DNA of 64,000 nt from an uncultured Spirochaetota bacterium (GTDB lineage Bacteria > Spirochaetota > B62-G9 > DRHN01). The first letter of the stretch is position 1. Every line of letters starts with the position of its first letter. The DNA is taken from assembly GCA_964583615.1 (NCBI GenBank), contig CAZOWM010000010.1, positions 11,480-75,479 on the forward strand, in the 5' to 3' direction. The notes under the pieces are model-generated. The model was not told the DNA's origin. It saw only the letters and a list, made by a program, of their open reading frames with translations, and made no database searches. Positions 14,288-40,397 of the stretch are shown here, one piece after another. A program made the translations under genes and the position numbers.

Positions 14288-14347
14288 AGCAGAAAGGACA
14301 CATACGCCTGATAGAGTGCACCGTGACGCTTGTATGAGGGGGCCCAT

Positions 14348-15115
14348 ATGGAAGAAAAAATACCGTTTCTAACGCAGGCCGAGAAAGAACGTTACAACCG
14401 GCAGATGATCCTTCCGGGGTGGGGAGAAGAGGGACAGCGAAAGCTCAGAACAACAGAAGTCTTCATTGCGGGTGCCGGAGGGCTGGGCAGCGCTGCCGCT
14501 CTGTACCTTGCTGCTGCTGGTATCGGGAGCATCAGAATCTGCGATTCGGGAAAAGTCGAACATTCCAATCTGAACCGCCAAATTCTTTATACCGGCGATG
14601 CTGTGGGAGAAAAAAAGGCGGATTTCGCGGTTCGTGCGGTTTCGCAGCTGAATCCTCACGTGCAGATCGAGCCTCTTTTTGGAAGCATCGAACCGGGCAC
14701 TATTTCGTCTCTTGTCGGTGAAGCGAAAATCATCATCGACTGCCTCGATAATTTTCCCGCCCGCTGTATTCTCAACGAATATGCGGTCGGTATGCGGCTC
14801 CCGTTGATTCACGCGGGAGTGTACGGTTTTTCCGGACAGGCTACCTTCATACACTCACCTGAAACCCCCTGCTTGAAATGCATATTCCCGGAGACACCGC
14901 AGCCTGCGGCCTTGCCCGTGGTTGGCACTGCCGCCGGAATACTCGGGTGTGTCGAGGCGCAGGAAGCGTTGAAGTACCTTATCGGCAAAGGAAGGCTTCT
15001 CAAGAACAGGCTCCTCATCTGGGATGGCGACGGGTCGAGCTTTGAGGAGATTCACGTGGAGAAAAACCCTGAATGTGAGGTGTGCGGCACACCGGAGGCA
15101 AAAGGCTCAGAGTGA
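14348..15115 (+). CDS. moeB: MoeB/ThiF adenylyltransferase
   Basis: RYNRQ, GAGGLG, SNLNRQ, DCLDN, CLKC and CEVC zinc motifs. GAGGGG SD. Confidence 0.9.
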   Translation: MEEKIPFLTQAEKERYNRQMILPGWGEEGQRKLRTTEVFIAGAGGLGSAAALYLAAAGIGSIRICDSGKVEHSNLNRQILYTGDAVGEKKADFAVRAVSQLNPHVQIEPLFGSIEPGTISSLVGEAKIIIDCLDNFPARCILNEYAVGMRLPLIHAGVYGFSGQATFIHSPETPCLKCIFPETPQPAALPVVGTAAGILGCVEAQEALKYLIGKGRLLKNRLLIWDGDGSSFEEIHVEKNPECEVCGTPEAKGSE

Positions 15116-19218: not shown

Positions 19219-20946
19219 ATGACACTGTTTGATACCAGGATGAAATATGTCCTTTCGTTCGTAAAAAAATTTATCTGGGCTATGGCCGGTGTCATTGTGC
19301 TTCAGTTCGTCCAAAACTACGCCTTTACCATGCTCCCAAGGGTGAGCACCAACTTCATTTTCGAGCTTTTCACACCGGAAAATTTTCACGAGATATACAA
19401 GTATTTTTTTGTCGCTTTGGGGATCATCATTGTCAGAGGGGTGCTCGGGTACATCACCACTTACTCTCTGGCTGTATACTCTGAAAATGCGGTCAACAAA
19501 CTGAGGGTAAATTTTTTCACGCACCTCATCAATCTCCCTCTCCACTACTTCAAAAAGAACAAAACGGGGAATTTCATCACCATTATGATCGATGATATGA
19601 GCAAAATCCGAGCGGACCTGTATGAAGGCATTGTGAGGATCATATCCCAGTCCATATATGCGATTATTGTTTTAACGAAGCTCTTACTTTTGAATTACAA
19701 ATTGACTTTCATCAGTTTTGTGGCATTTCCTGCAGTGTACGTTCTGATCAGGGTTCTCGGTAAGAAAATGCGCCGAACGAGTAAAAAACTTCAGCAGAAC
19801 GTGTCGAATCTCTCCTCAAACCTTCACGAAACGATCACCGGCGTGGATGTGGTGAAGGCGTTTGCAAAGGAAGATTACGAAAAAGAGAAATTTTCCCGTA
19901 CCTCGGAGGATTACAGAAAGACTTCTCTTAAACTCAAGGTGCTCAACAGCGCGTTCAAGCCGCTCAACCACTTCATCTTCTATTTTTTCGGTTTCATCCT
20001 GATCGGCATTGCGGGGCTTTTCATCGTACGGGGCGAGTGGACGGTCAAGGGTCTGAGCGAGTATCTCATGCTTCTCGCTATCCTTTTCACGCCACTGGAC
20101 AACATCCCGAAGACAATCGCGAATTTCAAGATTGTGAGCGCATCGGTCGACAGGGTGTACAATGTCGTGAAAACCGTTAGCACGATTACCGACCCGCCAC
20201 ATCCGGTTGAAAAAGACATTGAAGGGAAAATACAGTTTCAAAACGTGTATTTTGCATACGACAGCGAGACGGTATTGAACGGCATCAACTTCACTGTAGA
20301 AAAGGGTGACATCCTCGCGCTTGTCGGTTCCTCGGGAGCGGGAAAAACTTCGATAGTGAATCTAATCCTGCGTTTTTACGATCCTGTCAGCGGTGCGGTT
20401 GCGGTCGATGATATAGACGTGAAAAAATACAGCATCAAGTCCCTCCGCTCACAGATCGGGATCGTCTCCCAGAACATCGTACTTTTCAATGACACTATAT
20501 TCGAGAACATATGCTACTCGAATCAGGATGCATCAAAAGAAGAGGTTATCGAGGCGTCAAAAAAGGCCCATGCCTATGAGTTCATCTCCAGGCTCCCAGA
20601 GCAATTCGACACCATAGTCGGGGAGAGGGGAACTAGGCTTTCAGGCGGTGAGAAACAGAGGATCGCGATTGCGCGTGCCGTGCTGACAAACCCCCAGATA
20701 TTGATACTCGATGAGGCGACATCCTCCCTTGACTCGGAGTCGGAGCACTACATTCAGATGGCGCTCAACGAGCTCATGGAAGGAAAAACTTCCGTGGTCA
20801 TCGCCCACAGATTGTCAACGATCACCCACGCAAACCGCATTCTTGTCATCGAAGACGGGCAGATCAATGCCCAGGGCACGCACGAGCAGCTTCTCGAAAA
20901 AAATGCGATTTACAAGCGGCTGTATACGCTTCAGTATTTCAGATAA
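19219..20946 (+). CDS. MsbA-like ABC exporter (fused TMD-NBD)
   Basis: About 6 TM helices, GSSGAGKT Walker A, LSGGEKQR signature, ILDEATSSLD, IAHRLST. Confidence 0.92.
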   Translation: MTLFDTRMKYVLSFVKKFIWAMAGVIVLQFVQNYAFTMLPRVSTNFIFELFTPENFHEIYKYFFVALGIIIVRGVLGYITTYSLAVYSENAVNKLRVNFFTHLINLPLHYFKKNKTGNFITIMIDDMSKIRADLYEGIVRIISQSIYAIIVLTKLLLLNYKLTFISFVAFPAVYVLIRVLGKKMRRTSKKLQQNVSNLSSNLHETITGVDVVKAFAKEDYEKEKFSRTSEDYRKTSLKLKVLNSAFKPLNHFIFYFFGFILIGIAGLFIVRGEWTVKGLSEYLMLLAILFTPLDNIPKTIANFKIVSASVDRVYNVVKTVSTITDPPHPVEKDIEGKIQFQNVYFAYDSETVLNGINFTVEKGDILALVGSSGAGKTSIVNLILRFYDPVSGAVAVDDIDVKKYSIKSLRSQIGIVSQNIVLFNDTIFENICYSNQDASKEEVIEASKKAHAYEFISRLPEQFDTIVGERGTRLSGGEKQRIAIARAVLTNPQILILDEATSSLDSESEHYIQMALNELMEGKTSVVIAHRLSTITHANRILVIEDGQINAQGTHEQLLEKNAIYKRLYTLQYFR

Positions 20947-21280
20947 ACAGCATACCGGACTCTCCCTTTCTGGGATGGTTTATTTGTGATTTTCCAACCA
21001 AAACGTTGAAAGTCCCCGAAGAGGCATGTGATTTTTTTCTCTTCCACAACTCACAGGCTGGGTTGAAGTGTGCCAAAATAGGCAGCAACGATCGCAATTC
21101 GTGACAAGTGAGTATATTTTTTTTTGTGGTGTGTTATTATACTTGTCAACTTCTTCAAGATAGAGTCAAGGTATTTAAAACAGATTTGATCACACAACTC
21201 GTATAAAAAACTGCCGATAATGTCTGATGAAGGGGTCTCATATACACAAGCAGGCAACGTTGATTTGGCAAGGAGTGGAG

Positions 21281-22390
21281 ATGCCTGAAGTATTAAAACA
21301 ATTTTTACTGAATGATATCATTGAGTTCGGCACATACGGTGTCAGTATTCTCGATATCTTGATCATCGTTCCCATTATTTTCGTTGATTTTACCATCTTC
21401 AGGGCAGTGAACAGACTGCTGAAGAAACGCAGGCTCCTCGAAAAACCGTTTGTGAAGGCGCTTGCAAAAGTATTCAGGTGGGTTCTTCACTTTCTCGCAT
21501 TTATCGGTGTCATGAGCGTCATCGGTGTGAAGATCGAGAACATCTTCGACTTCATCTATGCAGTGCTGAACTTCAAGCTTTTTACCATCGCAAATACCCA
21601 CATCAGCCTCCTGACGATCATCGTCATGGTCGTTGTCGTATATGTTTCTGCAAAACTCTCGAAGGTCGTCCGAAATTATTTCGACAAGTCCATTTTTCCA
21701 CGTTTCAACATCGAGGAAGGGCTCCGTTTTTCTCTTTCGAAATTCGCAGGATACCTTGTCATTGCGATCGGAGTGATCATCGCGCTCCAGGGTCTCGGCG
21801 TCAAGCTCTCCGCGCTCGCAGTCTTTGCAGGAGTCCTCGGCGTTGGAATCGGGTTCGGCATGCAGAGCATCACCGCGAATATCGTCTCAGGGATCGTCAT
21901 TCTTTTTGAGCGGCCCATTAAGGAGGGGGACATGATCAGGTTGAGCAATACCATCGGGGAGGTTCTCAAGATCAATCTGAGATCCTCGATCATCAGAACG
22001 ATATACAACGAGCACCTGATTGTACCGAATTCAGATTTCATCAACGGTGTTGTGGAGAACATGTCCTGGGGTGACATCCGTCTCAGGCTCAGCGTGAAAG
22101 TCGGTGTTTCCTATGGGACCGATCCTTTTGTTGTGCAGAAAGCGCTCATCGAGGCTGCGGAAAAAACGGAGAACGTCATGAACAATCCGGAACCCACGGT
22201 ACTGTTCAGAGATTTCGGGGACTCGTCGTTGAATTTCGAGCTTCTTGCGTGGATAGAAAATCCCGCACTCAGATTCATTACAGAGAGCAGCATCCGCTTT
22301 ACCATCGTTGAAATTTTCAAAGAGTACGGCATTACCATTCCCTTTCCGCAGCAGGATGTGTATATCAAAACGATGCCGCGTGAACAATAA
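21281..22390 (+). CDS. mscS: MscS small-conductance mechanosensitive channel
   Basis: GVLGVGIGFGMQSITANIVSG, ERPIKEGD, VPNS, V.VSYG.D, FGDSSLNFEL, IPFPQ.D. AAGGAG SD. Confidence 0.92.
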   Translation: MPEVLKQFLLNDIIEFGTYGVSILDILIIVPIIFVDFTIFRAVNRLLKKRRLLEKPFVKALAKVFRWVLHFLAFIGVMSVIGVKIENIFDFIYAVLNFKLFTIANTHISLLTIIVMVVVVYVSAKLSKVVRNYFDKSIFPRFNIEEGLRFSLSKFAGYLVIAIGVIIALQGLGVKLSALAVFAGVLGVGIGFGMQSITANIVSGIVILFERPIKEGDMIRLSNTIGEVLKINLRSSIIRTIYNEHLIVPNSDFINGVVENMSWGDIRLRLSVKVGVSYGTDPFVVQKALIEAAEKTENVMNNPEPTVLFRDFGDSSLNFELLAWIENPALRFITESSIRFTIVEIFKEYGITIPFPQQDVYIKTMPREQ

Positions 22391-22520
22391 AAAGATGTTT
22401 ATATATACATCATTTGTATAAGTACAATTTATCGAACTCCGCGCTGAAAATGTTGTCCTTTTCCCCTCCCCAGTCTTAGAATATTTCATCATAGATTTCG
22501 TTCTTCACAAGGAGGTAAAG

Positions 22521-23807
22521 ATGGGGAAATATACGTTGAAATGCCTTGCGTGTGAAAAGGAATACGAAGACGACTTCTTCAGGCTCGAATGTGACAATCG
22601 GCATGTTCCCTCCCTTCTCAGAACGGAGTATGAAAAGGATAAAATCAATGTAAAGGAAGACAGGCCGGGTATGTTCAAATTCGAAGACTTTCTGCCTGTA
22701 AGCCGCACGCTCGACGTAAAAGGCGCTCCTGTGACGTACAGAAGCGAGCAGCTTGCGAAGTACCTCGGACTAGAGAATCTTTTCATTATTTTCAACGGCT
22801 ACTGGCCGGAGAAGGGTGCGTATATGGAGACCGCTTCCTTCAAGGAGCTCGAGGCGCCCTCCGTGCTGGGCAGAATACCGGAAAACTGTACAGACACCAT
22901 CGTGGTGGCATCTGCAGGAAATACCGGCCGGGCATTCGCATATGTCTGTTCCCGAAACCATATTCCTCTCGTGCTCGTCGTACCGGAGGAAAACAAAGAT
23001 GAAATCTGGTCCACAGAGCCGTACAACTCGAACGTCAGGCTTGTGTGTGCGGGCGGCAACAGCGACTATACAGATGCAATCATGCTCGCAGGCAAGATGA
23101 CCGGATTGAAGGGATTTTTCCCGGAAGGCGGGGCAAAAAACGTTGCGCGCAGAGATGGGATGGCAACCACTGTCCTCGATGCGGCCCACAGAATGAAAAA
23201 AATCCCGGACCATTACTTTCAGGCGGTTGGTTCAGGAACAGGGGGCATTGCTGCATGGGAGTCCTACGTGCGGCTCCGTGAAGACGGAAGCTACGGTGAT
23301 GGAAAGATGACGCTTCACCTGTCTCAGAATGCTCCCTTTACACCGATCACGGATGCATGGAACGGAGGGCAGAGGTCATTTCCGGAGCTGGATGAAAAAC
23401 GTGCCAAGGAAGATATACGGCGGATAAAGGCGCACGTTCTCAGCAACAGAAAACCACCATACTCGATTAAGGGCGGAGTGTTTGACGTAATGTCGGACTC
23501 TTCGGGGCGAATGTACTCCGTGACGAACGAAGAAGTGATCAAGGCGCAGGAGCTCTTCGCCCATTATGAGAAAATCGATATTCACCCTGCAGCCGGCGTT
23601 GCACTCGGTTCACTCATACAGGCGAAAGAACAAAAACTCATACGGAGCCACGATTACATTGCGCTGAACGTGACAGGCGGAGGAGAAGATCGGGTAAAAG
23701 ATGAACTCCAGATTCACTTTCTCGAGCCTCTGGTTACATTTACCGATGAGGAGATACATTGTGACGGAATCGAAGAAATGCTTCAGGACATTCTTGTTAC
23801 ATACTGA
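22521..23807 (+). CDS. Cysteate synthase (PLP-dependent, threonine-synthase fold; Methanosarcina MA3297 type)
   Basis: SFKELEA PLP-lysine motif (threonine synthases have SFKDRG), FNGYWPEKGA, ASAGNTGRAF, GAKNVARRDGM.T, YFQAVGSGTGGIAAWE, VLSNRKPPYS. Strong AAGGAGGT SD. Confidence 0.85.
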   Translation: MGKYTLKCLACEKEYEDDFFRLECDNRHVPSLLRTEYEKDKINVKEDRPGMFKFEDFLPVSRTLDVKGAPVTYRSEQLAKYLGLENLFIIFNGYWPEKGAYMETASFKELEAPSVLGRIPENCTDTIVVASAGNTGRAFAYVCSRNHIPLVLVVPEENKDEIWSTEPYNSNVRLVCAGGNSDYTDAIMLAGKMTGLKGFFPEGGAKNVARRDGMATTVLDAAHRMKKIPDHYFQAVGSGTGGIAAWESYVRLREDGSYGDGKMTLHLSQNAPFTPITDAWNGGQRSFPELDEKRAKEDIRRIKAHVLSNRKPPYSIKGGVFDVMSDSSGRMYSVTNEEVIKAQELFAHYEKIDIHPAAGVALGSLIQAKEQKLIRSHDYIALNVTGGGEDRVKDELQIHFLEPLVTFTDEEIHCDGIEEMLQDILVTY

Positions 23808-24006
23808 TGTGTGACCCGTTGAAGCCGGAAAGCACAGCTCGCCAACCCAGACACAAAAAAAGCGGGTAAATGAATTGACACCTTTTGTGGCGCTTCTCTC
23901 AGATAAAATTTCATTATGAATCATTAATAATAATAATTTTTATTTATTTGATTTATTTTATCACAAATATCATCATTGTGTGCATCTCAATGAAAAGGAG
24001 GTTTGT

Positions 24007-24138
24007 ATGCCTGAACGTGTACACGAAAAAAGAAGAATAAAGAGGAAAAAGGTCGGAGTTGACTGGTGGGCGGTCATCTGTGCCATCGTTGCCCTTTTGG
24101 TGGTAAAACTGGGCATCGTGCAGAAAATTCCGTGGTAA
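24007..24138 (+). CDS. 43-aa single-TM membrane peptide (below the ORF-track cutoff)
   Basis: MPERVHEKRRIKRKKVGVDWWAVICAIVALLVVKLGIVQKIPW. AAAAGGAG SD 6 nt upstream; ends 16 nt before the exporter start. Confidence 0.75.
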   Translation: MPERVHEKRRIKRKKVGVDWWAVICAIVALLVVKLGIVQKIPW

Positions 24139-24154
24139 AAAAGAGGGTTCATCC

Positions 24155-25234
24155 ATGAGAGAACGTAACAAATTTGTACGAAATGCGCTGGAGTATGTTC
24201 CAGGTATTGCCATGCTCGCGGTCATCGGACTCTGCGGCAAGTACTTGGAACGTGTGGTTGCCTCAGTGCTCAGTGATTCTGCCCGTGTTGTTTCAAGTGA
24301 CATGTATATTCTTTTTGCCATCATCATTGGAATCATCGTCGGAAACCTCGTAAAAATGCCTTCAATATTCAGGAAGGGAATTGCCACGTACGAGTTCTGG
24401 CTGAAATTCGGGGTTGTGCTCATCGGCGCGAAGCTGGCGATCCAGGAGCTCTTCCTTCTCGGAAGCCTCGGGATAGTGCTTGTTGTGCTCGAAATCATTG
24501 CCTCGATCCTCATCGTACGGCTGGTATCGAGAAGATTCCGGCTCTCTGAGAAGCTCTCCAGCCTCATTTCCATCGGCGTCGGGATCTGCGGCGTGTCGGC
24601 GATTGTGGGGTGCGCTCCCGCAATCGATGCGGAAGAAAAGGATTCCAGCTATGCGATTGCAATCATTCTTATATTCGGAGCGATGGCACTCGTGCTGTAT
24701 CCTGCCATAGGTAAGCTCCTCGACATGACCGACAAGAGTTTCGGCATGTGGGCGGGGCTTGCGGTGGACAACACAGCAGAAGCCGTGGCAACAGGGCACA
24801 TCTACTCCGAGACCGCAGGGAAGTACGCCACTATGACAAAGCTCATGAGGAATGCGCTCATGGGTATCACCATTCTCGGATTTGCTGTCTATTATGCCAG
24901 AAAAGGGCTCGCCAAGGACATTCAGCACAAGGGAAAGTTCCTCTGGGAGAAATTTCCCAAGTTCGTGATCGGATTCATCCTTTTCACGATACTGGCTTCC
25001 ATCCGGTTCGAGAACGGGTACGTGCTCCTCACGAAGGAGCAGATCGGTGCGCTGAAGAACCTCTACAAGTGGGCGTTCATGCTCACCTTTGCAGGTGTCG
25101 GGCTTTCGACGAGCATCAGGGACATGAAAGGAACGGGATTCAAACCTTTCGCGGTAGGAATCACCACCGAACTGGGAGTGGGTCTCTTTACTCTCGTGCT
25201 GATATTTCTCCTGAACTTCTCCGGAATGCTGTAA
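24155..25234 (+). CDS. YeiH / putative sulfate (sulfonate) exporter family membrane protein
   Basis: About 10 TM helices, LKFGVVLIGAKL, GVGICGVSAI...PAI, GMWAG..VDNTAEAVA, TKLMRN, FPKFVIGF. Confidence 0.9.
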   Translation: MRERNKFVRNALEYVPGIAMLAVIGLCGKYLERVVASVLSDSARVVSSDMYILFAIIIGIIVGNLVKMPSIFRKGIATYEFWLKFGVVLIGAKLAIQELFLLGSLGIVLVVLEIIASILIVRLVSRRFRLSEKLSSLISIGVGICGVSAIVGCAPAIDAEEKDSSYAIAIILIFGAMALVLYPAIGKLLDMTDKSFGMWAGLAVDNTAEAVATGHIYSETAGKYATMTKLMRNALMGITILGFAVYYARKGLAKDIQHKGKFLWEKFPKFVIGFILFTILASIRFENGYVLLTKEQIGALKNLYKWAFMLTFAGVGLSTSIRDMKGTGFKPFAVGITTELGVGLFTLVLIFLLNFSGML

Positions 25235-25276
25235 GCTGTACTGCAGAAAAAAGGGGGTGCACACCCCGTGTGTGTG

Positions 25277-25303
25277 AAGGCGGCCGTGAAGGCCGCCTTT
25301 TCT
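25277..25303. terminator. Bidirectional terminator between the convergent exporter and sugar permease genes
   Basis: AAGGCGGCC-gtgaa-GGCCGCCTT perfect 9-bp stem, followed by TTCTT on the + strand. Confidence 0.8.
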
Positions 25304-25309
25304 TGATAC

Positions 25310-26398
25310 CTACATACCGAACTTCCGCCTTCGCCACTGGTCAAAAATGACAACTGCAACGATGACGATCCCCATGACCACGCGCTGCCAGAAAGCAGAG
25401 ACATTGAGCAGGTTCAGCCCGTTTCCCAGAACTCCCATGATAATTGCGCCGATCAGGCTTCCGATAATGCTCCCTTCACCGCCAAAGAGGTTTGTGCCGC
25501 CGATAACCACAGCTGCGATGCATTTTAGTTCCACACCGGTTGCCATAAGAGCGTTTGCGGAATTCATACGGCCTGTCAGCACGATGCCCGCAACAGCCCC
25601 CATCATCCCCATGATGGTATAGGTGGCGATTTTTATCCGGTCTACCTTGAGTCCGGAAACTCTCGACGCTTCCTTGTTGCCGCCGATGGCAAGTATCGAT
25701 CTTCCCAGTACCGTCTGACTGAGGATAAGCCAACCGATGCCGACCATAATGAACGCGATCAGGGGGCCTGTGGGAATACCAGCAACCTCCTTTCCCCCCA
25801 TCCAGATGATGGGTTCCGGAAGATACCCTTTCAGCTCGGTTGCGGTCAAGTGCGAGGGGATGGGGAGCCCTCCGGTTACCAGAAGAGCCACTCCCCGCGC
25901 AGCTTCCATCATTCCGAGTGTTGCAACGAAGTCGGGGATTCGTCCTTTTGCGATTACAAGGCCGTTGATGGTACCGGCGATTGTACCGACGAGAAAGCCG
26001 GCAAACACCGCAAGCCACACATTGATGGGACCGAAGGTTGTTCCAATGAACGTAATTTCCTGTGTGGCAAGAACTGCCATGATTGATGCAGACACTGCCA
26101 TTATCGCGCCTACAGAGAGGTCGATTCCCGCGCCGATGATCACCATGGTCTGGCCTACTGCAAGTATGATGAGATAGGCGTTCTGCTGCCCAATGTTCTT
26201 CAGGTTGTCGATGGATGCAAAGTGCGGTGAAGCGATAGAGAAGTACACTACAAGCAGAAGGAGAGCGATTATCGGACCGCCCTGTAGAAGCGTTGCCCAG
26301 CTGAACTTACTCAGGCCCATACTTCGTATCATACGCGTCAAAACAGATACGCTTTCACCGGGGTTTCTTTCTTCCTTCGAAGATTGGCGCATTCTCAT
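25310..26398 (-). CDS. Sugar ABC transporter permease (RbsC family)
   Basis: GIDLSVG, FVATLG, T.LGRSI.AIGGN.EASRVSG, ELKCIAAVVIGGT.L.GGEG. Confidence 0.92.
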   Translation of the reverse strand: MRMRQSSKEERNPGESVSVLTRMIRSMGLSKFSWATLLQGGPIIALLLLVVYFSIASPHFASIDNLKNIGQQNAYLIILAVGQTMVIIGAGIDLSVGAIMAVSASIMAVLATQEITFIGTTFGPINVWLAVFAGFLVGTIAGTINGLVIAKGRIPDFVATLGMMEAARGVALLVTGGLPIPSHLTATELKGYLPEPIIWMGGKEVAGIPTGPLIAFIMVGIGWLILSQTVLGRSILAIGGNKEASRVSGLKVDRIKIATYTIMGMMGAVAGIVLTGRMNSANALMATGVELKCIAAVVIGGTNLFGGEGSIIGSLIGAIIMGVLGNGLNLLNVSAFWQRVVMGIVIVAVVIFDQWRRRKFGM

Positions 26399-27918
26399 TC
26401 TCCTCCAATAACTGCGTATCTTAGAATATCCTCCTGAGTGGCTTCTCCTCTTTTAAGCTCCGCTGTTATGCTCCCGCGGCACATGACGAGAATTCGATCC
26501 GCGATCGCCATCACTTCGGGAAGTTCAGAGGAGATCATGATGATTCCGACTCCTTGTTTTACGAGCTGACTCATCAGCCTGAACACTTCCGTTTTTGAAC
26601 CGACGTCTATCCCCCTCGTGGGTTCGTCGAAGATCATGATTCTGGAATTGCTGCAGATCCACTTCGCGAGCGCGACCTTCTGCTGGTTTCCGCCGCTGAG
26701 GAACTCGACTTTCTGATGCACCCCGGAAGTGTGGATATTGAGCTCTCTTATGAATCTTTCCGACAAGCTTCTTTCGTTTCGCCTTTGGAGAAATCCGAAG
26801 CGCCGAAGCCGGCCGAGGCTTGCGAGCGTGATGTTCGCCGATACATGGAGCCTGGGAACCAGGCCGTTTTTTCTATTCTCCGTGAGGTATCCGAGCCCGA
26901 GTTCGATCGCGTCCCAGGGGGATGAAATGCTTACCTCTCTCCCGTCGATGTAGATACTCCCGCTGTCGATTTTATCGATCCCGAAGAGAGCGCGTGCGAA
27001 CTCCGTCCGGCCCGCCCCCATCAGGCCGGAGATGCCCAGTATCTCTCCCTCATGCAGGCTCAGATTTATATTATACAGCTTTCCTTCGGCGTTGAGGTTC
27101 TCTATCCTCAGGATTTCCTTCCCTATTTCTACTGTTTCCTTTGGGAACTGTTCTTTGAGCTCGCGGCCGACCATCATCTTTATCAGCGTGCCCTCATCCG
27201 ATTCTTGAACGTTCAGGGTGCCCATTTTTTTTCCGTCCCTGAGTACTGTTACACGCTGACCGATATGCGGGACTTCATCGAGGCGGTGAGACACATACAC
27301 GATTCCGACGCCTCTTTTCCGCAGACGTCTGATAATGTCGAACAGCCTCTCACGTTCCTCCGCGGAAAGGGCTGAGGTGGGTTCATCGAGGAGGAGTATG
27401 CGCACATTAATCGAAAGCGCCTTCGCAATCTCAACAAGCTGCCTCTCTGCCATTCCAAGAGTCCTGACTCTCTGTTTCGGATCCACGTGCACGTCGAAGT
27501 CTCTGAAAAGGCTTTGCGTTTCCTCATACAACCGTGTCCAGTGCACGGTACCTGTCGAATGCTTCGGGAGCCTTCCCAGATAGATATTTTCCGCAACGCT
27601 GATACTCGTCACCAGGCTCAGCTCCTGGTACACCATTCCGATTCCCAGCTCCCGCGCGTGGTGGGGATTTTCTATCTCAACTTCTTCTTCTTCCAGGAAT
27701 ATTTTTCCGCCGTCCTTGGGCAGGGTTCCACTGAATATTTTCATAAGGGTCGATTTCCCCGCTCCATTTTCACCGAGGAGCACATGCACTTCTCCTGCCT
27801 TGAGGTCGAAGTCAACATCTTCCAGCGCGTGAACCCCGGGGAACTTTTTGTCGATGGCTTCAGCTTTCAGGAGATAGTCCTCCACTTTCATACCCTTGCT
27901 CCTGTGATGGATGGTCAC
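26395..27918 (-). CDS. Sugar ABC transporter ATP-binding protein (RbsA family, tandem NBD)
   Basis: GENGAGKST, DEPTSAL, LSGGNQQK, DEPTRGIDVG. Confidence 0.93.
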   Translation of the reverse strand: MTIHHRSKGMKVEDYLLKAEAIDKKFPGVHALEDVDFDLKAGEVHVLLGENGAGKSTLMKIFSGTLPKDGGKIFLEEEEVEIENPHHARELGIGMVYQELSLVTSISVAENIYLGRLPKHSTGTVHWTRLYEETQSLFRDFDVHVDPKQRVRTLGMAERQLVEIAKALSINVRILLLDEPTSALSAEERERLFDIIRRLRKRGVGIVYVSHRLDEVPHIGQRVTVLRDGKKMGTLNVQESDEGTLIKMMVGRELKEQFPKETVEIGKEILRIENLNAEGKLYNINLSLHEGEILGISGLMGAGRTEFARALFGIDKIDSGSIYIDGREVSISSPWDAIELGLGYLTENRKNGLVPRLHVSANITLASLGRLRRFGFLQRRNERSLSERFIRELNIHTSGVHQKVEFLSGGNQQKVALAKWICSNSRIMIFDEPTRGIDVGSKTEVFRLMSQLVKQGVGIIMISSELPEVMAIADRILVMCRGSITAELKRGEATQEDILRYAVIGGE

Positions 27919-28724
27919 AACGCGGTGTAACCGCCGTCAATGCTCAGAGCCGTACCGATCGTGTACTTCGCTTCATCGGATGCGAGAAATAAAATACCCG
28001 CCGCGATCTCTTCAGGTTTTCCCATTCGCTTCAAAGGCCTGTCCTCGGAAAGCTCCCTCAGTGTGGTCTCGGGGTCTTCAGAGCTGTTGATGACCTTTTC
28101 CACGAGAGGAGTAAATACTCTTCCCGGACACACACAGTTGACCCTGATATTCTTATCGGCAAAATCCACAGCCGAGCTCTTTGTGAATGCAACGACTCCG
28201 CTTTTTGAAACATTGTACGCCACCTGATTACGTATTGCAACGAGCCCTGCTTCGGAAGCGATGTTCACGATACTCCCCCCTCCGGTTTTCACCATCTCCG
28301 GAATACAGTACTTCGTGCAGAGAAACACGCCAACGAGATTCACGCTCAGAATTCTGTCCCACTCCTGCTCGCTCGTGTCAACAGCGGTTCCGGTTGTAAA
28401 AATTCCCGCAACATTCACGAGAATGTCGATTCGAGAATACGCGGAAACCGCAAAACGCACCATGTTCTGTACATCCGCGGTCTTTGATACGTCGGTGCGG
28501 ACAAAGGCTGCGTCCCCGCCTTTGCTCCGGATACGCTCCACGGTGTCATTTCCCGCTTTAGTATCGATATCGGCAGCCACCACATGCGCACCCTCGTCTG
28601 CAAAAAGCAGCGCTGTTGTTTTTCCAATTCCTGATCCCGATCCGGTGATAATAGCGCTCTTGTGCGCAAGTTTCATCTTTTCTCCCCGTTCGCACGGATG
28701 GGGATGGATGCTCGAAGCCGCCAT
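27915..28724 (-). CDS. Short-chain dehydrogenase/reductase
   Basis: TGSGSGIG, NVAG, SIVNIAS, YNVSK catalytic motif, RVNCVCPG. Confidence 0.92.
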   Translation of the reverse strand: MAASSIHPHPCERGEKMKLAHKSAIITGSGSGIGKTTALLFADEGAHVVAADIDTKAGNDTVERIRSKGGDAAFVRTDVSKTADVQNMVRFAVSAYSRIDILVNVAGIFTTGTAVDTSEQEWDRILSVNLVGVFLCTKYCIPEMVKTGGGSIVNIASEAGLVAIRNQVAYNVSKSGVVAFTKSSAVDFADKNIRVNCVCPGRVFTPLVEKVINSSEDPETTLRELSEDRPLKRMGKPEEIAAGILFLASDEAKYTIGTALSIDGGYTAL

Positions 28725-28743
28725 CCACCCCCACCGTTTTTCA

Positions 28744-29940
28744 CTACTTCCGCGGTGAACCGCCTTCCTTGATTATATCCCACTCTATGGGCTCCAAAGC
28801 GGGATTCGGATAGAAGAGCCGAGCGTTGTCCTTGTACATCGTTCTTGGCCGTATGTCGAATATATAGGGAACTTCACCGCCGAGCGCGAGTGTCACTGCA
28901 AACTCCGTTCCGTACCACCCCCATTCCGGAAAACCATGGTGAGTTTCGGCTATCATCTTTCCTTCAGCGACACGGTCAGCGGACTCAGGCGTTACATCAT
29001 TGGTGAAAATCGCAACATACTTGTCACCGATATCGCCCATGCCCGCGATCTCGAGCCGGCCTTTCCCTTCGCATGCGAGCATCGCTCCAAGACCCATTTC
29101 ATTGGAGGCAGCCCATATCGCATCGAGTGTGCCTGGAGGGTTGGCGGTGAGAAAATCTTCCGCAGCCTGTATTCCCTTCTCCCGGTTCCAGTCCGCGGGA
29201 AGAGTGCCGACGATTTCTATCCCTGGAAAGGGGTCGACAACCTCGTGAAACCCGTTGAGCCTGGCCGTAGAGAAAAACCCTCCAGCAATTCCCTCGATAA
29301 TTGCCACCCGTGCTTTGATATTGGAATTCGCGGGGTAAACGTCCTCATACAGGTCCTTCCACCAGGCAAGATCGAGATAGGTATCGCCGTCTACGTCCAC
29401 ATTGGGTCCCTTGCCCAGCACACCCGGCCCTCCGAAGTAATCGAGAAGTGCATATGCGGAGATTCTTCCCGCATCCGTGTTGTCAAAACCGATGTAGGAT
29501 GCAACATCAACACCGGGAATGGGCTCAAGAAGATTGACAATGATCACAGGAATTCCCTGTTCGTTTGCCTTTTTGATCGTGGGTTTTATCACCTCGACTT
29601 CGATTGGAGAGATCGCGATGACGTCGACTTTTCTCTGAACATAATCTTCGATGATTGCGACTTGGTCGGCGAATGCGACATGCGTTGCGGGTGACTGAGA
29701 AATGACCTCCACTTCGATCCCGTTCTCCCGCGCGTCTTCGGCGCTTTTCTCGAAGTAATCTGTTGCTGTTTTAAATACACCGGTGATGTCGGGCGGGGTC
29801 CAGCCGATTGTAATTTTCTCAGGCGCTTTCCTTCTTGATGAAGCAGCCAACCGCGCATCGTGGTGCTGTGCAACGAAGATACACACGAGCGCAAGCACAA
29901 CTAGCGTTGAAATTGCGAGCAGTTTCATTTTTTTTGCCAT
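28744..29940 (-). CDS. Sugar ABC substrate-binding protein (RbsB/Peripla_BP_4 family)
   Basis: Signal/anchor, DQVAIIED, KANEQGIPV, SYIGFDN, ARLNGF, ADWNRE.G, ASNEMGLGA. Confidence 0.88.
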   Translation of the reverse strand: MAKKMKLLAISTLVVLALVCIFVAQHHDARLAASSRRKAPEKITIGWTPPDITGVFKTATDYFEKSAEDARENGIEVEVISQSPATHVAFADQVAIIEDYVQRKVDVIAISPIEVEVIKPTIKKANEQGIPVIIVNLLEPIPGVDVASYIGFDNTDAGRISAYALLDYFGGPGVLGKGPNVDVDGDTYLDLAWWKDLYEDVYPANSNIKARVAIIEGIAGGFFSTARLNGFHEVVDPFPGIEIVGTLPADWNREKGIQAAEDFLTANPPGTLDAIWAASNEMGLGAMLACEGKGRLEIAGMGDIGDKYVAIFTNDVTPESADRVAEGKMIAETHHGFPEWGWYGTEFAVTLALGGEVPYIFDIRPRTMYKDNARLFYPNPALEPIEWDIIKEGGSPRK

Positions 29941-30202
29941 TTCCTTCTCCTTTATGGTAGATTTATAGTGGATTATGTGTAGTATTGAGGTGACAAGAAG
30001 AATGTGTAACAGTAGAAGTGTATTTCTTTATGCCGTGTCTTGATGAAAATGTGAAATAGAGACCCGCTTACTACACATATTTTCATGGAGAAAAACTCTC
30101 TTTTCTCGCACGGAACGCATATTATTGTATACCTTTTACATCCTGTGTCAAATATATTCTTTTTGCTGACAGGCGAATCGTTAAGAGATGGGGGTAACTG
30201 AA

Positions 30203-30532
30203 ATGGTGCACCGGTATAAAATTTACTCGTATTTAGATAAACAAAGAAATCTCAATATTGGAAAAATTCTCGATCCCAACGGGGAATGGGTGAGATTCAA
30301 AGAATGCAATAGATACTCGAAAGAAGTGTGCGACGAAAATTACGTGCTCCAGCAGAAGTGTACCGCTCTGGAGGAACAAAACAAACAGTTTCTCAAAGTG
30401 CTCGACTGGTATGCAGATATCGACAACTGGCTTCCTCCCGAGAGCGGGGCGGACGTTCTGGTGTCCGAAGCGGAAAAGGATCAGGGAGAAAGAGCGCGTT
30501 CGGTCCTTATGGAAATCAGCGAAAGCGATTGA
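30203..30532 (+). CDS. Hypothetical protein with coiled coil, phage-like motifs
   Basis: 110 aa from ATG 30203 (GGGGGT SD). GEWVRF, LDWYAD..NW, DQGERARSVL. Confidence 0.55.
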   Translation: MVHRYKIYSYLDKQRNLNIGKILDPNGEWVRFKECNRYSKEVCDENYVLQQKCTALEEQNKQFLKVLDWYADIDNWLPPESGADVLVSEAEKDQGERARSVLMEISESD

Positions 30533-30652
30533 AATGTTCCGGCAATTCGCATGTGTGGCGCGCATCCTTTGCGTGAGGGTATATTTAAAGAGGTGCCGTT
30601 TCAGGCACCTCTTTTGTTTCACGGTATGCGCGAACAGTGGCCAGGCGCTCAC

Positions 30653-31036
30653 CTAATCGGTAAAGCGTGTGGAACCGGAGTACTCGTAAGAGCTTGAAAA
30701 TGCAATGACCAGCATCATTACAATTCCGACAATGGGAATAATGATGCTGACTACAATAAGAGCCGGGTGTACGGAAAAGGCGAGATAGAACTTCACGATC
30801 CAGATGATGGCGAAGATGATGTTCACAATCGGAATAAACAGGAGAAATATGTTCCATCCGCTCTTATCGATGATATGGAGCAGGGCGACCAGCTGAACGA
30901 ACGGAATGAATGCCACCCACACGTTTTTGATGTTCGCCTTTTTCCCTGCCATAAACAGTGAAATTGCATAAACAGCATACCATACCAATCCGTAAATCCA
31001 TCCTGTGTCTTTCGCTGTCTCAAGATAACCGGGCAT
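30653..31036 (-). CDS. Small membrane protein (DUF5684/DUF805-like)
   Basis: KKAN....W.AFIPF, W..FLLFIPIVNII, 4 TM helices. AAGGAG SD. Confidence 0.8.
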   Translation of the reverse strand: MPGYLETAKDTGWIYGLVWYAVYAISLFMAGKKANIKNVWVAFIPFVQLVALLHIIDKSGWNIFLLFIPIVNIIFAIIWIVKFYLAFSVHPALIVVSIIIPIVGIVMMLVIAFSSSYEYSGSTRFTD

Positions 31037-31191: not shown

Positions 31192-32076
31192 ATGAATACG
31201 AAACAGCTGAAACTCTTCATGCTCATTGCAGACATCAAGAGCTTTTCAAAAACAGCGGAGCTCGAGGCGCTCACCCAGCCTGCGGTTACTCAGCAGATTA
31301 TCAGGCTCGAAAAGGAAATGGGCTCAGTTCTTTTCCGCAGAAGGCACAAGAAGATCGAGCTCACCAAAAAAGGAAAACTCTTCTACAAGTTCGCAAAAAA
31401 TATGCTGACGATGGTTGACAACCTTGAAAAGGAGATGAGAATCATCGATCAGCGTGATGAAAGCTATCTTCGCATCGGTTCCAGTCATATCCCCACCTCG
31501 GAATTTCTCTATCAGAAGATCGCTGACTTCAAGAAAGCCCATCCCCATGTCTACATCATCTATGAGCTCAGCGACACCGAGAGCATCTCATACATGGTCG
31601 AAAACGAGTTGCTCGACCTCGGTTTTGTGGGAGCAATCACAAACAACAACCTTCAGTACAGAAGTTTTTCAGGGGACGAGCTGAAACTCGTTGCGAATAA
31701 GGATTTTGACGTGCCCTCCGAGATATCGCTTTCCGCACTGAAGGATATTCCGCTGATCATTAATCAGAAGCAGTCGGGTGTTAGAAAATATCTCGAAAAA
31801 AAACTAGAAGATTATAACATACTGTTTTCCGATTTAAACATCATCTCAGAAATCGGTCTTCCCGACGCGCTCGCGAGTGTTGTGCTCCATGGAGCAGGGT
31901 GCGCCTTCATCCCGTCTATTGTACTCGAACGGGAGATAAATAAGAGGGAGCTGAAGATTATCACGGTGAAGAACTTCAAAGCGTACAGAAGCTACTATTC
32001 GATCACGAAAAAAGGAGCTCTTCTTTCGAAACTTGCAGAGGAGTTCCTCAATTCCTTTATTACTGCGTCTGAATAA
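31192..32076 (+). CDS. LysR-family transcriptional regulator (CysL-like)
   Basis: SFSKTAE...LTQPAVTQQIIRLEKEMG HTH, LRIGSS, LDLGFVG, GAGCAFIP. Confidence 0.92.
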   Translation: MNTKQLKLFMLIADIKSFSKTAELEALTQPAVTQQIIRLEKEMGSVLFRRRHKKIELTKKGKLFYKFAKNMLTMVDNLEKEMRIIDQRDESYLRIGSSHIPTSEFLYQKIADFKKAHPHVYIIYELSDTESISYMVENELLDLGFVGAITNNNLQYRSFSGDELKLVANKDFDVPSEISLSALKDIPLIINQKQSGVRKYLEKKLEDYNILFSDLNIISEIGLPDALASVVLHGAGCAFIPSIVLEREINKRELKIITVKNFKAYRSYYSITKKGALLSKLAEEFLNSFITASE

Positions 32077-32093
32077 AATACTACAAAAAATTA

Positions 32094-32122
32094 TTGAAAT
32101 GGGTGTTTTCCTGCGCTATATT
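32094..32122 (+). promoter_or_regulatory. Sigma-70 promoter for the TPR-barrel-exbBD-tonB operon
   Basis: TTGAAA, 17-nt spacer, TATATT in an AT-rich intergenic region. Confidence 0.55.
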
Positions 32123-32206
32123 GTTCATAAGTATTTGAAAAAATGTATTTTTCACCATCGGCACTTTTCCGGCACCATTTCTAACATAAATCAAAAAAGA
32201 CCGACC

Positions 32207-35131
32207 ATGAAAAAAGAAAAATTCACGAACATTGTAAAGATTGTGTTCCTGTACATGATTTTCGCGATCACCCCCCTTTCCCTTTCGGCGATGACAAGGG
32301 AAATGGAGCTGTTTTCAGACGCAGAGAGCAGGTATTACGGAAAGAGTTATGTGATCGCCCTCGAAATGTACGACGAGTTCCTGAAGAAATTTCCGCTCTC
32401 GGACCTCGTCCCCGATGTACAGTACAGAAAGGCGGTCTGTCTGTACAGGCTGGGGGATCTCGAGCGGGCGATGTTGCTGTTCAGCACAGTCGAAAAGCGG
32501 TACAGGGCAACGAAGTACATTACGTACGTTCCGTTCTGGAAAGGGCTCATCTATTTTCATCAGGCGGATTATGGAAATGCGGAAGAGCTTTTGGAAGCTT
32601 TCGTGCAGGAAACGAAAGACAAGGACCTGAAACTTCAGGCGATGCTCCATCTGGCAATCAGCGAGCTCTCTCAGGACAAGTTTGCTGATGCATATGAAAC
32701 GATGAAACGTCTGGAAGACGCAAAGCGTCCGGATACACTCTCACCCTATGAAGCGCTCGTTCTCAGCCACATACTTTTGAAAAAAAACGCCTACAGCGAG
32801 CTCATCGCATTTCAGGACGGCATCGATTATACGGAGTTTTCCGAGGCCTGGAACGAGAGAATGCGCCTCTACAAAGGGGAAGCGCTGTGGAACCTCCAAG
32901 AGGAGAAACGTGCGGAGGAAGTGTACCGCTCGCTTACGGACGCCCATCCCGACGTATCTGCCAGTGCATTTCGGCGGCTTTATTTGATTGCACAGCAGAA
33001 TAATGATATTGAGCGTATGGAAGAAATCATATTACAGGCGGAAGAAAAGTTCAGCGGTTCCCCGGAGACGCTGGTGGACCTCTGGCTCGGCATCGGAATC
33101 GAGAGTTTCAACCGCGGGGAGGCGGATCTTGCGCGCTACTTTTTGAACAAGATCTGGATAATGAGAGAACAGCAGGAAGTTTCTGAAGCCGTTCCCGTGT
33201 ACCTTGCAGAAATCCATCTCCTCGAAGGCGAGGTGGAGTCAGCGAAGCGTGTTCTTGAAGAGTACATCGAAATATACAAACGCGAGCCGGCTGTCGTTTT
33301 GCTTCGGCTGGGAAACATTTATATGTACGGAGGGGAGTTTGAAAGAGCTTCGGAGATGTTTTCCCGCGTCGACGCGCTGTATCCGGGCACCGTTCATGCG
33401 CAAAAGGCGCGGTATCTGCTGGCTTATGCGCATTATAGAAAGGGGGAATACACGGAGTCACTTGCACTTTGCCTCGAATTGACGGAGAGAAAAAACATCG
33501 AGACTCATCTGAAACCCGGGATACTGCGGCTCACCGCACTGAATTACAGGAGACTGAGAAAAATCGAGGATGCGGCGCGGACCCTGGAAGTGTATCTTGT
33601 ATTCTACCCCCTGGACCTCTCTGCACAGGTTGATTTGACGAAACTGCTTTTTTCTTCCGGGAAATACAAGGATGCGATCAGCCACGCGGACGGAGTCCTG
33701 CAAAGCCGGCCCTCCATGCAGCAGACGGAAATAAGCTCATATCTTCTCCTCAAATACATTCAGGGGCTGTCGCAGATTCGCCTGAAGTCCTACGCCGAAG
33801 CGCATACAGCATTCCAGGAAATCACGGCCGGCAGGGTACAGGATGCGGGGCTCGAAGAGATTTTTCCCTATATTGAGTACTACCGCGGATGGATACTTTA
33901 CAGATTGAACGACGTAGAGAGTGCCAACGATGTTTTCAAACGGTTTGTGCGTTCCTTCAGAGACCACGAGCTTTTCGCGCAGGCTCTTTTCATGTCTGCG
34001 TGGTGCGCGTACAGCCTCGGAAACTACGAAGAGTCCAACAAACTCTTCGCCCGTCTCGCGGATGATGAATCAGGTCCGTACGGGGAAAAGGCGCGTTTTC
34101 TGCGGGCAAAGAGCCTGGAGAGCCTGAAAATGAGTTCGGAATCGGAAATACTCTTTAAAAACCTCTACAAAGAGAGTCCGGATTCGCCTTTTGCAGATGA
34201 CGCGCTCTATGAGCATGCAAATCTGCTCGGAGAGAAGGGCGCTATTGAAGAAGCTGCGGAAAAATACCTCGAGCTCCACAGCAGGTATGCGGCGAGTCCG
34301 CTCGCGGATGAAGCGCTCTACAGGAGGGGCGAGCTCTATTTCAACAACGGGAAATTCGACCGGGCCAGAAGCTCCTTTCGAGAATACCGCGTGCACTATC
34401 CAAAGGGCACGCTCATTGACGCCGCCCTCTACTGGGAGGGCCTTTCCGCCTACAACGACGGAGACAGCGCGGAGGCTTTACGACTGTGGGAGACCCTCAT
34501 CGAATCCCATACGGCAAGTCCGTTCAGGCCTGACGCGCTCATGAAAATCACAGACGCAAGAATCGAAAACGGTGATTATCGGAATGCACTCGAAAGCGTC
34601 AACGCGCTCCTGCAGGAGTATCCGGAGTACTCTGCACGGGTGAATGCGAACCTCACGGCAGAGCAGGTGCGGTATCTCATCCACGGTATGTCGCCCGTAG
34701 AGGCGGAGCTGACTGCCCGAATAAGTACACAGGGAGGGGTGCAAACCCGGAAAGGCAGAGAAGCAATGGTTGAGCTCTCGCGGTTCTACATATTCGAGGA
34801 TGAAGACAAGATCGAACGCGCGTTTCAGATGCTCAGTCAGGTAGTGGAATACAAGCAAGACCCTGTCACAGCGGCCCAAGCGCAGTTTCTTTTGGGTGAA
34901 TATTATGAGAAGAAAGGTGAGTACACAGAAGCCGGAAAGGAGTTTTTCAAAGCGTCGCTCAAGGATACGGAAGGCGCGGATTTTCGGGCTTATTCCATTT
35001 ACAGAGCAGCGCTGTCGATGAAACAGGTGGGAAAGTCGAGAGAAATACAGGAACTCGTGAGCAGGCTTGAAAAAAATTATCCGCAGTCCGAGTGGACACA
35101 GAAAGGAAAAAAGCTCCTGGAGGAAGAGTAA
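32207..35131 (+). CDS. Large exported tetratricopeptide-repeat protein (about 970 aa, CpoB/YfiO-like repeats)
   Basis: Signal peptide, many TPR units (A.Y..G..Y, YP.S..A..AL), ends YPQSEW..K. Start set at ATG 32207. Confidence 0.88.
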   Translation: MKKEKFTNIVKIVFLYMIFAITPLSLSAMTREMELFSDAESRYYGKSYVIALEMYDEFLKKFPLSDLVPDVQYRKAVCLYRLGDLERAMLLFSTVEKRYRATKYITYVPFWKGLIYFHQADYGNAEELLEAFVQETKDKDLKLQAMLHLAISELSQDKFADAYETMKRLEDAKRPDTLSPYEALVLSHILLKKNAYSELIAFQDGIDYTEFSEAWNERMRLYKGEALWNLQEEKRAEEVYRSLTDAHPDVSASAFRRLYLIAQQNNDIERMEEIILQAEEKFSGSPETLVDLWLGIGIESFNRGEADLARYFLNKIWIMREQQEVSEAVPVYLAEIHLLEGEVESAKRVLEEYIEIYKREPAVVLLRLGNIYMYGGEFERASEMFSRVDALYPGTVHAQKARYLLAYAHYRKGEYTESLALCLELTERKNIETHLKPGILRLTALNYRRLRKIEDAARTLEVYLVFYPLDLSAQVDLTKLLFSSGKYKDAISHADGVLQSRPSMQQTEISSYLLLKYIQGLSQIRLKSYAEAHTAFQEITAGRVQDAGLEEIFPYIEYYRGWILYRLNDVESANDVFKRFVRSFRDHELFAQALFMSAWCAYSLGNYEESNKLFARLADDESGPYGEKARFLRAKSLESLKMSSESEILFKNLYKESPDSPFADDALYEHANLLGEKGAIEEAAEKYLELHSRYAASPLADEALYRRGELYFNNGKFDRARSSFREYRVHYPKGTLIDAALYWEGLSAYNDGDSAEALRLWETLIESHTASPFRPDALMKITDARIENGDYRNALESVNALLQEYPEYSARVNANLTAEQVRYLIHGMSPVEAELTARISTQGGVQTRKGREAMVELSRFYIFEDEDKIERAFQMLSQVVEYKQDPVTAAQAQFLLGEYYEKKGEYTEAGKEFFKASLKDTEGADFRAYSIYRAALSMKQVGKSREIQELVSRLEKNYPQSEWTQKGKKLLEEE

Positions 35132-36744: not shown

Positions 36745-36754
36745 GGAGAGGAAC

Positions 36755-40200: not shown

Positions 40201-40397
40201 TTATCATTCTCCCTATTTGTTATATCGTCAGACAGTAGAGCAATTCTTTAGCCTTCTGACGAAAATCAGGGCTATTTAAATTTTAGTGTATTTGCAATCT
40301 CTTTTCAAATAAATCTTGTTAATTCTCATATGCATGAAAATTACTTGTTTGTGCACATGTCTGTGCTGTATAGTTGAAGGGTATTGGATTACATGTT

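Follow-up and report, generated by a model that had tools for sequence, protein, structure and literature searches.

The question raised by the locus described here is what a bacterium does with a cysteate synthase, and whether the membrane proteins encoded beside it have a part in that. The locus lies in a 64,000-nucleotide stretch of DNA from an uncultured Spirochaetota bacterium of sediment (contig CAZOWM010000010.1, positions 11,480 to 75,479 of the forward strand), called the window below, and comprises four genes on the plus strand (21227-25234 in the list of open reading frames, ORFs), which encode a mechanosensitive channel of the MscS family, the cysteate synthase, a small ORF product and a transporter of the YeiH family. 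ORF calling and protein clustering were mechanical, taxon labels were taken from the record titles of metagenome-assembled genomes (MAGs), and L-numbers denote the loci compared. The first-pass annotation of the window had listed these four co-oriented ORFs, and all of them were found where it had placed them; its start for MscS at 21281 is an in-frame ATG, but the ORF begins 18 codons earlier, at 21227. Three uses of cysteate had been proposed there, namely a sink for sulfite or an excreted product, an osmolyte and a lipid head group; the link to sulfite fits the data best, and the osmolyte idea fared poorly. The reading preferred here, to which we give somewhat better than even chances, is that the enzyme is a true cysteate synthase and that the small ORF and YeiH make up an accessory cassette handling sulfite. 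The enzyme is a further member of a family already known; the contribution of the locus is a neighbour that is informative, though coupled to the enzyme only loosely.

The enzyme and its relatives

The enzyme (22521-23807, plus strand, 428 aa) scored 508.6 bits with the cysteate synthase model TIGR03844 (cysteate_syn, EC 2.5.1.76), far above the equivalog cutoff of 324.9, while six models of the threonine synthase ThrC gave 36-71 bits against cutoffs of 167-421 (71 bits versus 303 for the best of them). The closest solved structure is that of a protein entitled 'Cysteate synthase' (PDB codes 9k3c/9k3o, E 1.8e-121, residues 4-410), and the best ThrC structure matched with E 3.4e-09. The motif TASFKELEA occupies residues 104-112, and Lys108 of its S-F-K-E part, the predicted PLP-binding lysine, is invariant in the alignment A1. 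An alignment of 77 cysteate synthase (CS) sequences has 84 columns with conservation of at least 95%, only 31 of which a ThrC outgroup shares; of 98 columns that are conserved elsewhere among the CS clades, the clade containing the window enzyme retains 83, and its consistent changes (W57F, C105A, G215A, A323V) are conservative. By its profile scores and motifs, the protein is a cysteate synthase and not a threonine synthase, as the first-pass annotation had supposed from a full-length protein with SFKELEA; the profile comparison with ThrC that it had proposed came out on the same side.

Best tblastn segments gave 44-51% identity to two groups of relatives: the archaeal clade that has ComDE and marker-16 at its flanks, and the Bacteroidales and Spirochaetales clades, which mostly adjoin an AOS acyltransferase. 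Cysteate synthase activity has been shown for members of the archaeal group (Graham et al. 2009, as cited in PMC4045070) and of the group on the Bacteroidales/Spirochaetales side (PMC11211663). Because of the family scores, the structure match, the conserved columns and the identity to the characterised groups, the conversion of O-phospho-L-serine and sulfite to L-cysteate and phosphate has very probably been retained. Apart from the active site motif, the N-terminal residues C8, C11, C24 and H28 form a Cys/His cluster that is invariant in the 15 sequences of A1; the same four positions are Cys, Thr, Ala and Cys in 9k3c, and the cluster may be a metal site specific to some clades.

The family resemblance also bears on the opposite proposal, that the enzyme is degradative here and acts as a cysteate sulfo-lyase, releasing pyruvate, ammonia and sulfite from cysteate, with YeiH expelling the sulfite in the manner proposed for SuyZ and TauZ of sulfonate degraders. 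Elimination of sulfite from cysteate would be the chemical reverse of the second half-reaction, all experimentally studied contexts of YeiH, SuyZ and TauZ generate sulfite, and both a consumer of cysteate and a source of sulfite are missing nearby. However, the conserved CS columns have been kept with conservative changes, the score lies far above the equivalog cutoff, an importer of cysteate is not evident and nine members of the clade have the enzyme without YeiH, so that we regard this proposal as highly improbable.

The enzyme is not rare. All 8000 scored candidates had E values of 1e-10 or lower; homologues 44-67% identical occur in many bacteria and already bear the name cysteate synthase, and named members of TIGR03844 are common in Spirochaetota, Acidobacteriota, Aminicenantes, Cyanobacteria, Bacteroidota and Dehalococcoidales. 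The family is thus curated and named by NCBI, structurally solved and widespread, and the rarity implied by calling it a methanogen-type enzyme in a bacterium has to be dropped.

A survey of 80 genome loci, arranged on a rough neighbour-joining tree, with partners checked using Pfam and NCBIfam, indicated that each CS clade has its own partner genes. In Archaea, these are the sulfopyruvate decarboxylase ComDE and marker-16/ComF (ComF is usual, not universal); in a second clade of Spirochaetales and in one MAG each of Dehalococcoidales and Muribaculaceae, an AOS acyltransferase, often together with divergent CysH and a VOC protein; in one cyanobacterial clade, a GH3 (OlsH-like) enzyme, apparently an amide synthetase; and in Moorena, Symploca and Richelia, a group II decarboxylase and a TauD-methyltransferase fusion. 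The window's clade, composed of Spirochaetota, Aminicenantes and one MAG labelled Eubacteriales, has no soluble cysteate-using enzyme as a partner; what surrounds the synthase there is MscS, either YeiH or DUF819, LysR and, in two of the loci, a 2-oxoacid dehydrogenase E1. The context of the Eubacteriales-labelled MAG recurs in L084, an Acidobacteriota locus that was found separately and has a 60% identical enzyme. The window's clade stands without a partner enzyme, and therefore the use of cysteate in these anaerobes is a modest question in its own right. The sulfite producer CysH/PAPS reductase stands beside the enzyme in other CS clades (L039, L040, L045, L085), and therefore local supply or control of sulfite is a recurring theme.

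Several of the surveyed loci deserve a description of their own. In the loci of one cyanobacterial clade (L018, L025, L026, L029, L031, L033-L037, L055), a GH3-family enzyme comes after the synthase; the NCBIfam model nearest to it, that of the lyso-ornithine lipid synthetase OlsH, matches weakly (95 bits) and hints at an acyl-cysteate or a cysteate amide as the product. In L016, L017, L019, L020, L023, L027 and L030 (Moorena, Symploca, Richelia), the synthase is accompanied by a group II PLP decarboxylase and the TauD-methyltransferase fusion, a combination that may lead from cysteate to taurine or to a natural product derived from taurine. In MAGs of Spirochaetales and Dehalococcoidales (L038-L041, L043, L045, L047, L054), the synthase adjoins the AOS acyltransferase, frequently in the company of a two-domain glyoxalase/VOC protein and of a CysH gene that is divergent; by predicted function, this is sulfonolipid-type gene content outside Bacteroidota. 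MAGs labelled Acidobacteriota, Aminicenantes and 'Eubacteriales' (L084 8001-15232, L011, L053, L013) have one common order of synthase, DUF819, in some cases BNR/sortilin, a PIP-synthase-like CDP-alcohol transferase, a PfkB kinase and a thioredoxin-like protein. L085 (8001-15993) has the order synthase, O-methyltransferase, class III aminotransferase, PAPS reductase, BCCT transporter and EamA, and looks like a small cluster for a sulfonate metabolite or an osmolyte. In L003 (4814-6858) and L015 (1795-4074), a TPP-dependent 2-oxoacid dehydrogenase E1, with alpha and beta parts split or fused, adjoins the synthase and could act on sulfopyruvate.

The partners of other clades were also sought directly. 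BLASTP searches with reference proteins from related loci found no match for ComDE, marker-16/ComF, AOS acyltransferase, group II decarboxylase, CysH, GH3 or E1 dehydrogenase in the six frames of the 64 kb, which agrees with the earlier statement that comDE and a cysteate acyltransferase are not in the window, and no obvious cysteate-consuming enzyme appeared in the Pfam annotation of its remaining genes. In the window's clade, 16 loci were covered to a distance of 7 kb from the enzyme, and none contained an AOS homologue. These nulls weigh against the proposal that cysteate from the enzyme goes into a sulfonolipid of the capnine type, or into some other sulfonated metabolite, through genes located elsewhere in the genome, with YeiH and MscS irrelevant to it, as does the repeated, independent adjacency of YeiH described below, which is hard to put down to chance. 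For such a route speak the AOS acyltransferases near the enzyme in the sister Spirochaetales clade and in the Dehalococcoidales and Muribaculaceae MAGs, the sulfonolipid pathway from cysteate established in Bacteroidota (PMC11211663) and the lipid genes of the window, which point to a diderm (an MsbA-like ABC protein at 19219-20946 and a lipid A acyltransferase-like protein at 2593-3489). We judge a sulfonolipid route unlikely, although it is the strongest of the rival explanations.

The micropeptide and the YeiH transporter

Between the enzyme and YeiH, the mechanical ORF list contained a 52-aa ORF with a GTG start (23980-24138, plus strand). The conserved protein starts at the ATG at 24007, behind AAAGGAGG, so that the gene occupies 24007-24138, ends 16 nt before YeiH and encodes 43 aa, MPERVHEKRRIKRKKVGVDWWAVICAIVALLVVKLGIVQKIPW, a putative single-helix membrane micropeptide and YeiH partner. 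Copies 67-77% identical lie directly upstream of YeiH in L006, L010 and L044 (the peptides of the duplicated loci L087 and L088 are identical to that of L006, and that of L104 to that of L010), and in the clade genomes the micropeptide is absent wherever YeiH is absent. Substitutions at codon positions 1, 2 and 3 number 108, 45 and 203, a pattern that points to selection on a coding sequence. When JGI metagenomes were scanned for the window's YeiH subfamily, 80 loci emerged, 66 of them with at least 200 nt upstream; a related small ORF stands directly upstream of YeiH in 50 of these 66, represented by 49 distinct sequences. The family is 30-43 aa long, with a core of approximately xDWWAV...LVKxG...(I/V)PW followed by the stop codon, and it had no match among Pfam or NCBIfam models. 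Its conservation marks the small ORF as a genuine gene with ties to YeiH; its product may be an unrecognised subunit of the transporter, and the window's YeiH subfamily has in it a conserved, unannotated partner.

YeiH itself (24155-25234, plus strand, 359 aa) is assigned to PF03601 with 237.7 bits (residues 16-334, profile positions 1-303 of 304) and so to the PSE family of secondary transporters (TC 2.A.98), which belongs to the CPA/AT superfamily (PMC8396727). It scored 129.5 bits with TIGR00698, below the cutoff of 232.6, and represents a divergent subfamily, the one that bears the micropeptide.

The peptide and YeiH are a separate, dispensable cassette. They occur in 4 of the 13 clade genomes (window, L006, L010 and L044). 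The closest relative found, L083 (GCA_975851135.1), has an enzyme 87% identical and the same gene order, including the sugar-ABC operon downstream, but lacks the 1.5 kb with the peptide, YeiH and an AT-rich block that precedes them, a clean difference of presence and absence. Most relatives keep the enzyme without the cassette, and therefore the enzyme has a role of its own. The block (23909-23981, plus strand) emerged when the spacers between enzyme and peptide were aligned for the window, L006, L010, L044 and L104, which share the invariant run ...TTAT...ATAA.T.TTATTTATT.G..., and is a candidate promoter or operator of the cassette.

Within the 80 metagenome loci, the cassette adjoins a NIR_SIR sulfite reductase and/or a CysG-type siroheme synthase in 13, an Stf0 sulfotransferase in 7 and a cysteate synthase in 4, three of which belong to the window's clade; the fourth, L089, has a divergent enzyme of the AOS-type CS clade. 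One YeiH subfamily thus recurs beside sulfite-consuming enzymes, both sulfite reductase and cysteate synthase. Genome loci add further arrangements: in L009, a distant PF03601 paralogue (confirmed) is convergent with the enzyme, and in the Aminicenantes locus L013, a GntR-YeiH-ThrC unit is divergent from it. Together with the same-strand order of the window's clade and L089, this makes at least four arrangements of YeiH and the enzyme. By our own estimate, a roughly single-copy family would fall within 7 kb of a given gene in approximately 0.4% of genomes; given this expectation and four different arrangements, the adjacency is unlikely to be due to chance. Typical of the loci with sulfite reductase is an order in which this gene and a CysG-type siroheme synthase precede the micropeptide and YeiH, and a second sulfite reductase, fused to TusA, and a CysK-like protein come after them; in soil and peat metagenomes (L090, L093-L095, L097, L099, L102, L119 and others), where ThiF ends the series, YeiH is embedded in a sulfur assimilation island.

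The published work on YeiH relatives agrees with a link to sulfite. The founding PSE member, SuyZ, comes from a cysteate degradation pathway, and in H. denitrificans yeiH, which has a LysR neighbour, is up 526-fold on thiosulfate (PMC11582611). A Salmonella yeiH deletion mutant has a high sensitivity to sulfite, and YeiE activates yeiH upon exposure to sulfite (10.1101/2025.07.27.662810). In B. pertussis, bp2808 of the YeiH family is induced 140-fold by excess cysteine, and its authors describe it as essential for adaptation to cysteine stress and treat it as a sulfite exporter (10.64898/2026.04.22.720190). Since the gene contexts and this literature have an inorganic sulfur oxyanion in common, the substrate of the window's YeiH is most likely, by analogy, such an oxyanion, sulfite, and the sulfite-generating contexts argue for export. 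The earlier suggestion of a sulfonate or cysteate exporter is disfavoured by the same evidence, that is, by the position of the subfamily beside sulfite reductase/siroheme or Stf0 genes in 20 of the 80 metagenome loci and by experiments that link YeiH to sulfite stress (10.1101/2025.07.27.662810; 10.64898/2026.04.22.720190; PMC11582611). The PSE/YeiH family has been tied experimentally to sulfite only since 2025-26, and the locus adds comparative evidence.

In Acidobacteriota-type loci, DUF819 fills the same position downstream of the enzyme. The idea that YeiH and DUF819 are interchangeable homologues was rejected (hhalign probability 0.2, from thin profiles); the only link between the two families is their place in the published CPA/AT classification (PMC8396727).

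The MscS channel, the LysR regulator and the fate of cysteate

The MscS-family protein (21227-22390, plus strand, 387 aa) contains the TM2/3 (PF21088), beta (PF00924) and C-terminal (PF21082) domains, all above their cutoffs. Of the 11 clade genome loci whose upstream flank spans at least 2 kb, 9 have an orthologous gene upstream of the enzyme; the two without it are L015 and L021. It abuts the enzyme in L005, L007, L009, L010, L044, L083 and the metagenome locus L104; in 5 of 12 loci (L003, L006, L008, L087 and L088), unrelated genes intervene, namely a sugar kinase (L006, L087, L088), an SDR gene (L008) or six genes including an E1 dehydrogenase (L003). The gene belongs to a collinear block of the clade, which runs SBP, MscS, enzyme, (YeiH), LysR, TPR protein, 550-aa protein, ExbB and ExbD and which resumes in the window at 31192-37866. 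Outside the clade, MscS-like genes were seen only twice, distant and on the opposite strand. The adjacency of MscS looks like inherited gene order, and the channel is probably a bystander with no demonstrated functional tie to the enzyme; the osmolyte idea, which had been drawn from MscS, loses its footing with a link confined to one collinear clade and interrupted in the five loci. The YeiH/MscS order does recur in relatives, so the neighbourhood is not peculiar to one genome; a unique neighbourhood, which the first-pass annotation had named as an observation that would count against it, is not what was found.

A related proposal is that cysteate or a simple derivative is the end product, a compatible solute or an excreted compound, with YeiH exporting the sulfonate and MscS serving as a release valve. 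Efflux of glutamate through the MscS-type channel MscCG of Corynebacterium resembles such an arrangement. The window's clade is alone in having no soluble cysteate-modifying enzyme beside the synthase, a membrane protein (YeiH or DUF819) fills the downstream position, MscS precedes the enzyme in most clade loci (the 9 of 11 mentioned), and the distant L085 couples the enzyme with a methyltransferase, an aminotransferase and an osmolyte-type BCCT transporter. The contexts of the YeiH subfamily and all experimental data on YeiH, however, point to inorganic sulfite and not to sulfonates, the MscS link is broken by sugar kinase, SDR or E1 genes within the one clade that has it, and the closest relative has no YeiH. 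We therefore consider the end-product proposal improbable, somewhat more so than the sulfonolipid route.

The LysR-family regulator (31192-32076, plus strand; protein cluster c13 and NCBIfam profiles) follows the enzyme by 64-503 nt, or YeiH directly, in L003, L004, L006, L007, L008, L012, L087 and L088. In the window, a convergent sugar-ABC/SDR operon (25310-29940, minus strand) and two small genes, together 25310-31036, separate it from YeiH; YeiH and LysR are adjacent in the relatives L006 and L087, and L083 has the same insertion but no YeiH cassette. The best NCBIfam model for the regulator is NF040786, a selenium-metabolism-associated LysR (223.7 bits, cutoff 250), and the YeiE model NF040889 gave 95.5 bits against a cutoff of 480, which indicates that it is not a YeiE orthologue.

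In the preferred reading of a true synthase with an accessory cassette, the enzyme would join sulfite to O-phosphoserine to yield L-cysteate and would probably supply it to a pathway encoded elsewhere in the genome. The two-gene cassette, separately regulated, would move sulfite or a close sulfur oxyanion across the membrane, serving as an overflow or protection valve for the reactive and toxic substrate of the enzyme; uptake appears less likely. The LysR protein would be the likely regulator of the cassette, by analogy with the sulfite-sensing YeiE-YeiH pair.

Several points weigh against this reading. To our knowledge, there is no transport assay for any PSE member, so the substrate and direction are unproven. 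Identity between the window's YeiH and the copies in sulfite reductase operons is only 43-53%, the protein falls below the TIGR00698 cutoff, and the regulator is far from the YeiE score (95.5 bits versus 480). The cassette is absent from 9 of the 13 clade members, including the closest relative, and most loci of the window's YeiH subfamily are without cysteate synthase; the coupling of enzyme and cassette is therefore loose. Neither a source of sulfite nor a consumer of cysteate was found in the 64-kb window, and uptake of sulfate would suit the Stf0 context better than export of sulfite. A bolder version goes further on two counts: the stand-alone synthase of the Spirochaetota/Acidobacteriota/Aminicenantes clade would fix sulfite with cysteate as the end point (a solute or an excreted sink), and the 30-43-aa 'DWWAV...IPW' micropeptide would be a subunit, not described before, that a two-component PSE sulfite transporter requires. 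As a whole, this version seems improbable.

The signals around the genes are modest. Ahead of the enzyme start (22453-22520, plus strand), a consensus scan and reading of the sequence brought out promoter-like hexamers (TTGTCC and TAGAAT, 18 nt apart) and AAGGAGG as ribosome-binding site. The promoter evidence is weak: the scan picked up 8 sites in the region where shuffles led one to expect 5.8, and its promoter-like hits were no commoner than in shuffled sequence. That scan also detected no terminator on the plus strand in the stretches that separate MscS, the enzyme and the peptide. Downstream of YeiH, the hairpin GGCGGCC-GTGAA-GGCCGCC followed by TTTTCTT (25279-25304, plus strand), recognised by reading the sequence, is the likely terminator of the cassette and faces the convergent sugar-ABC operon; the scan flagged not this hairpin but only a neighbouring one on the minus strand (25267-25254). 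A search of the whole window against Rfam gave no match at gathering thresholds, and none at E<=1 in 20900-25400, so that the idea of a riboswitch or other RNA in the spacers was dropped; tRNA genes were not found within the 64 kb. The same DNA is present on short contigs of Logan SRR9706179 and JGI 3300031654, and the nearest named relatives are uncultured Spirochaetota MAGs.

Elsewhere in the window, ThiS/ThiF genes (14032-15115) were considered as sulfur-transfer partners and rejected; they follow an aldehyde:ferredoxin oxidoreductase gene, an order that we take to be a cofactor-related arrangement. At 50234-50780 lies the remnant of an O-acetylhomoserine sulfhydrylase-type gene (Cys_Met_Meta_PP), with N- and C-terminal pieces in different frames and the middle missing, between a hexapeptide-repeat transferase (49159-50166, minus strand), CysE-like in our own reading, and MetX-MetW (50816-51928). 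A 1618-aa protein (51944-56800, minus strand) combines alpha-amylase-like and glycogen/starch synthase domains, and a glycogen cluster near it (40374-47424) encodes a debranching enzyme, GT4, GH57 and a phosphorylase.

Comparison with known systems

The window enzyme resembles MA3297 of M. acetivorans (Graham et al. 2009, as cited in PMC4045070 and PMC3516359) in scoring above the TIGR03844 cutoff and in the lysine motif SFKE, and its best-segment identity to orthologues of Methanosarcinales is 44-48%. In archaea, cysteate synthase is followed on the way to coenzyme M by ComDE and usually marker-16/ComF, whereas the window has neither and its host is bacterial. With the cysteate synthase of Bacteroidota sulfonolipid formation (Cys/CapA; PMC11211663), it shares approximately 50% identity to Bacteroidales loci, but it has no adjoining cysteate acyltransferase.

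The channel upstream has the three Pfam domains of MscS/MscK channels, and among NCBIfam models it aligns best with MscK, in the C-terminal channel part of that protein; it differs in scoring far below every equivalog cutoff, and it is tied to cysteate only by gene order within one clade. The closest parallels for the cassette are YeiE-YeiH of Salmonella, BP2808 of B. pertussis, Hden_0834/0835 of H. denitrificans and SuyZ of P. pantotrophus, with which it shares PF03601, an ancestral LysR neighbour and association with sulfite-handling genes. The differences are an upstream micropeptide that is undescribed in those studies, a LysR gene that is co-oriented, not divergent, and whose product is not a YeiE orthologue, and a partner enzyme that would consume sulfite rather than produce it.

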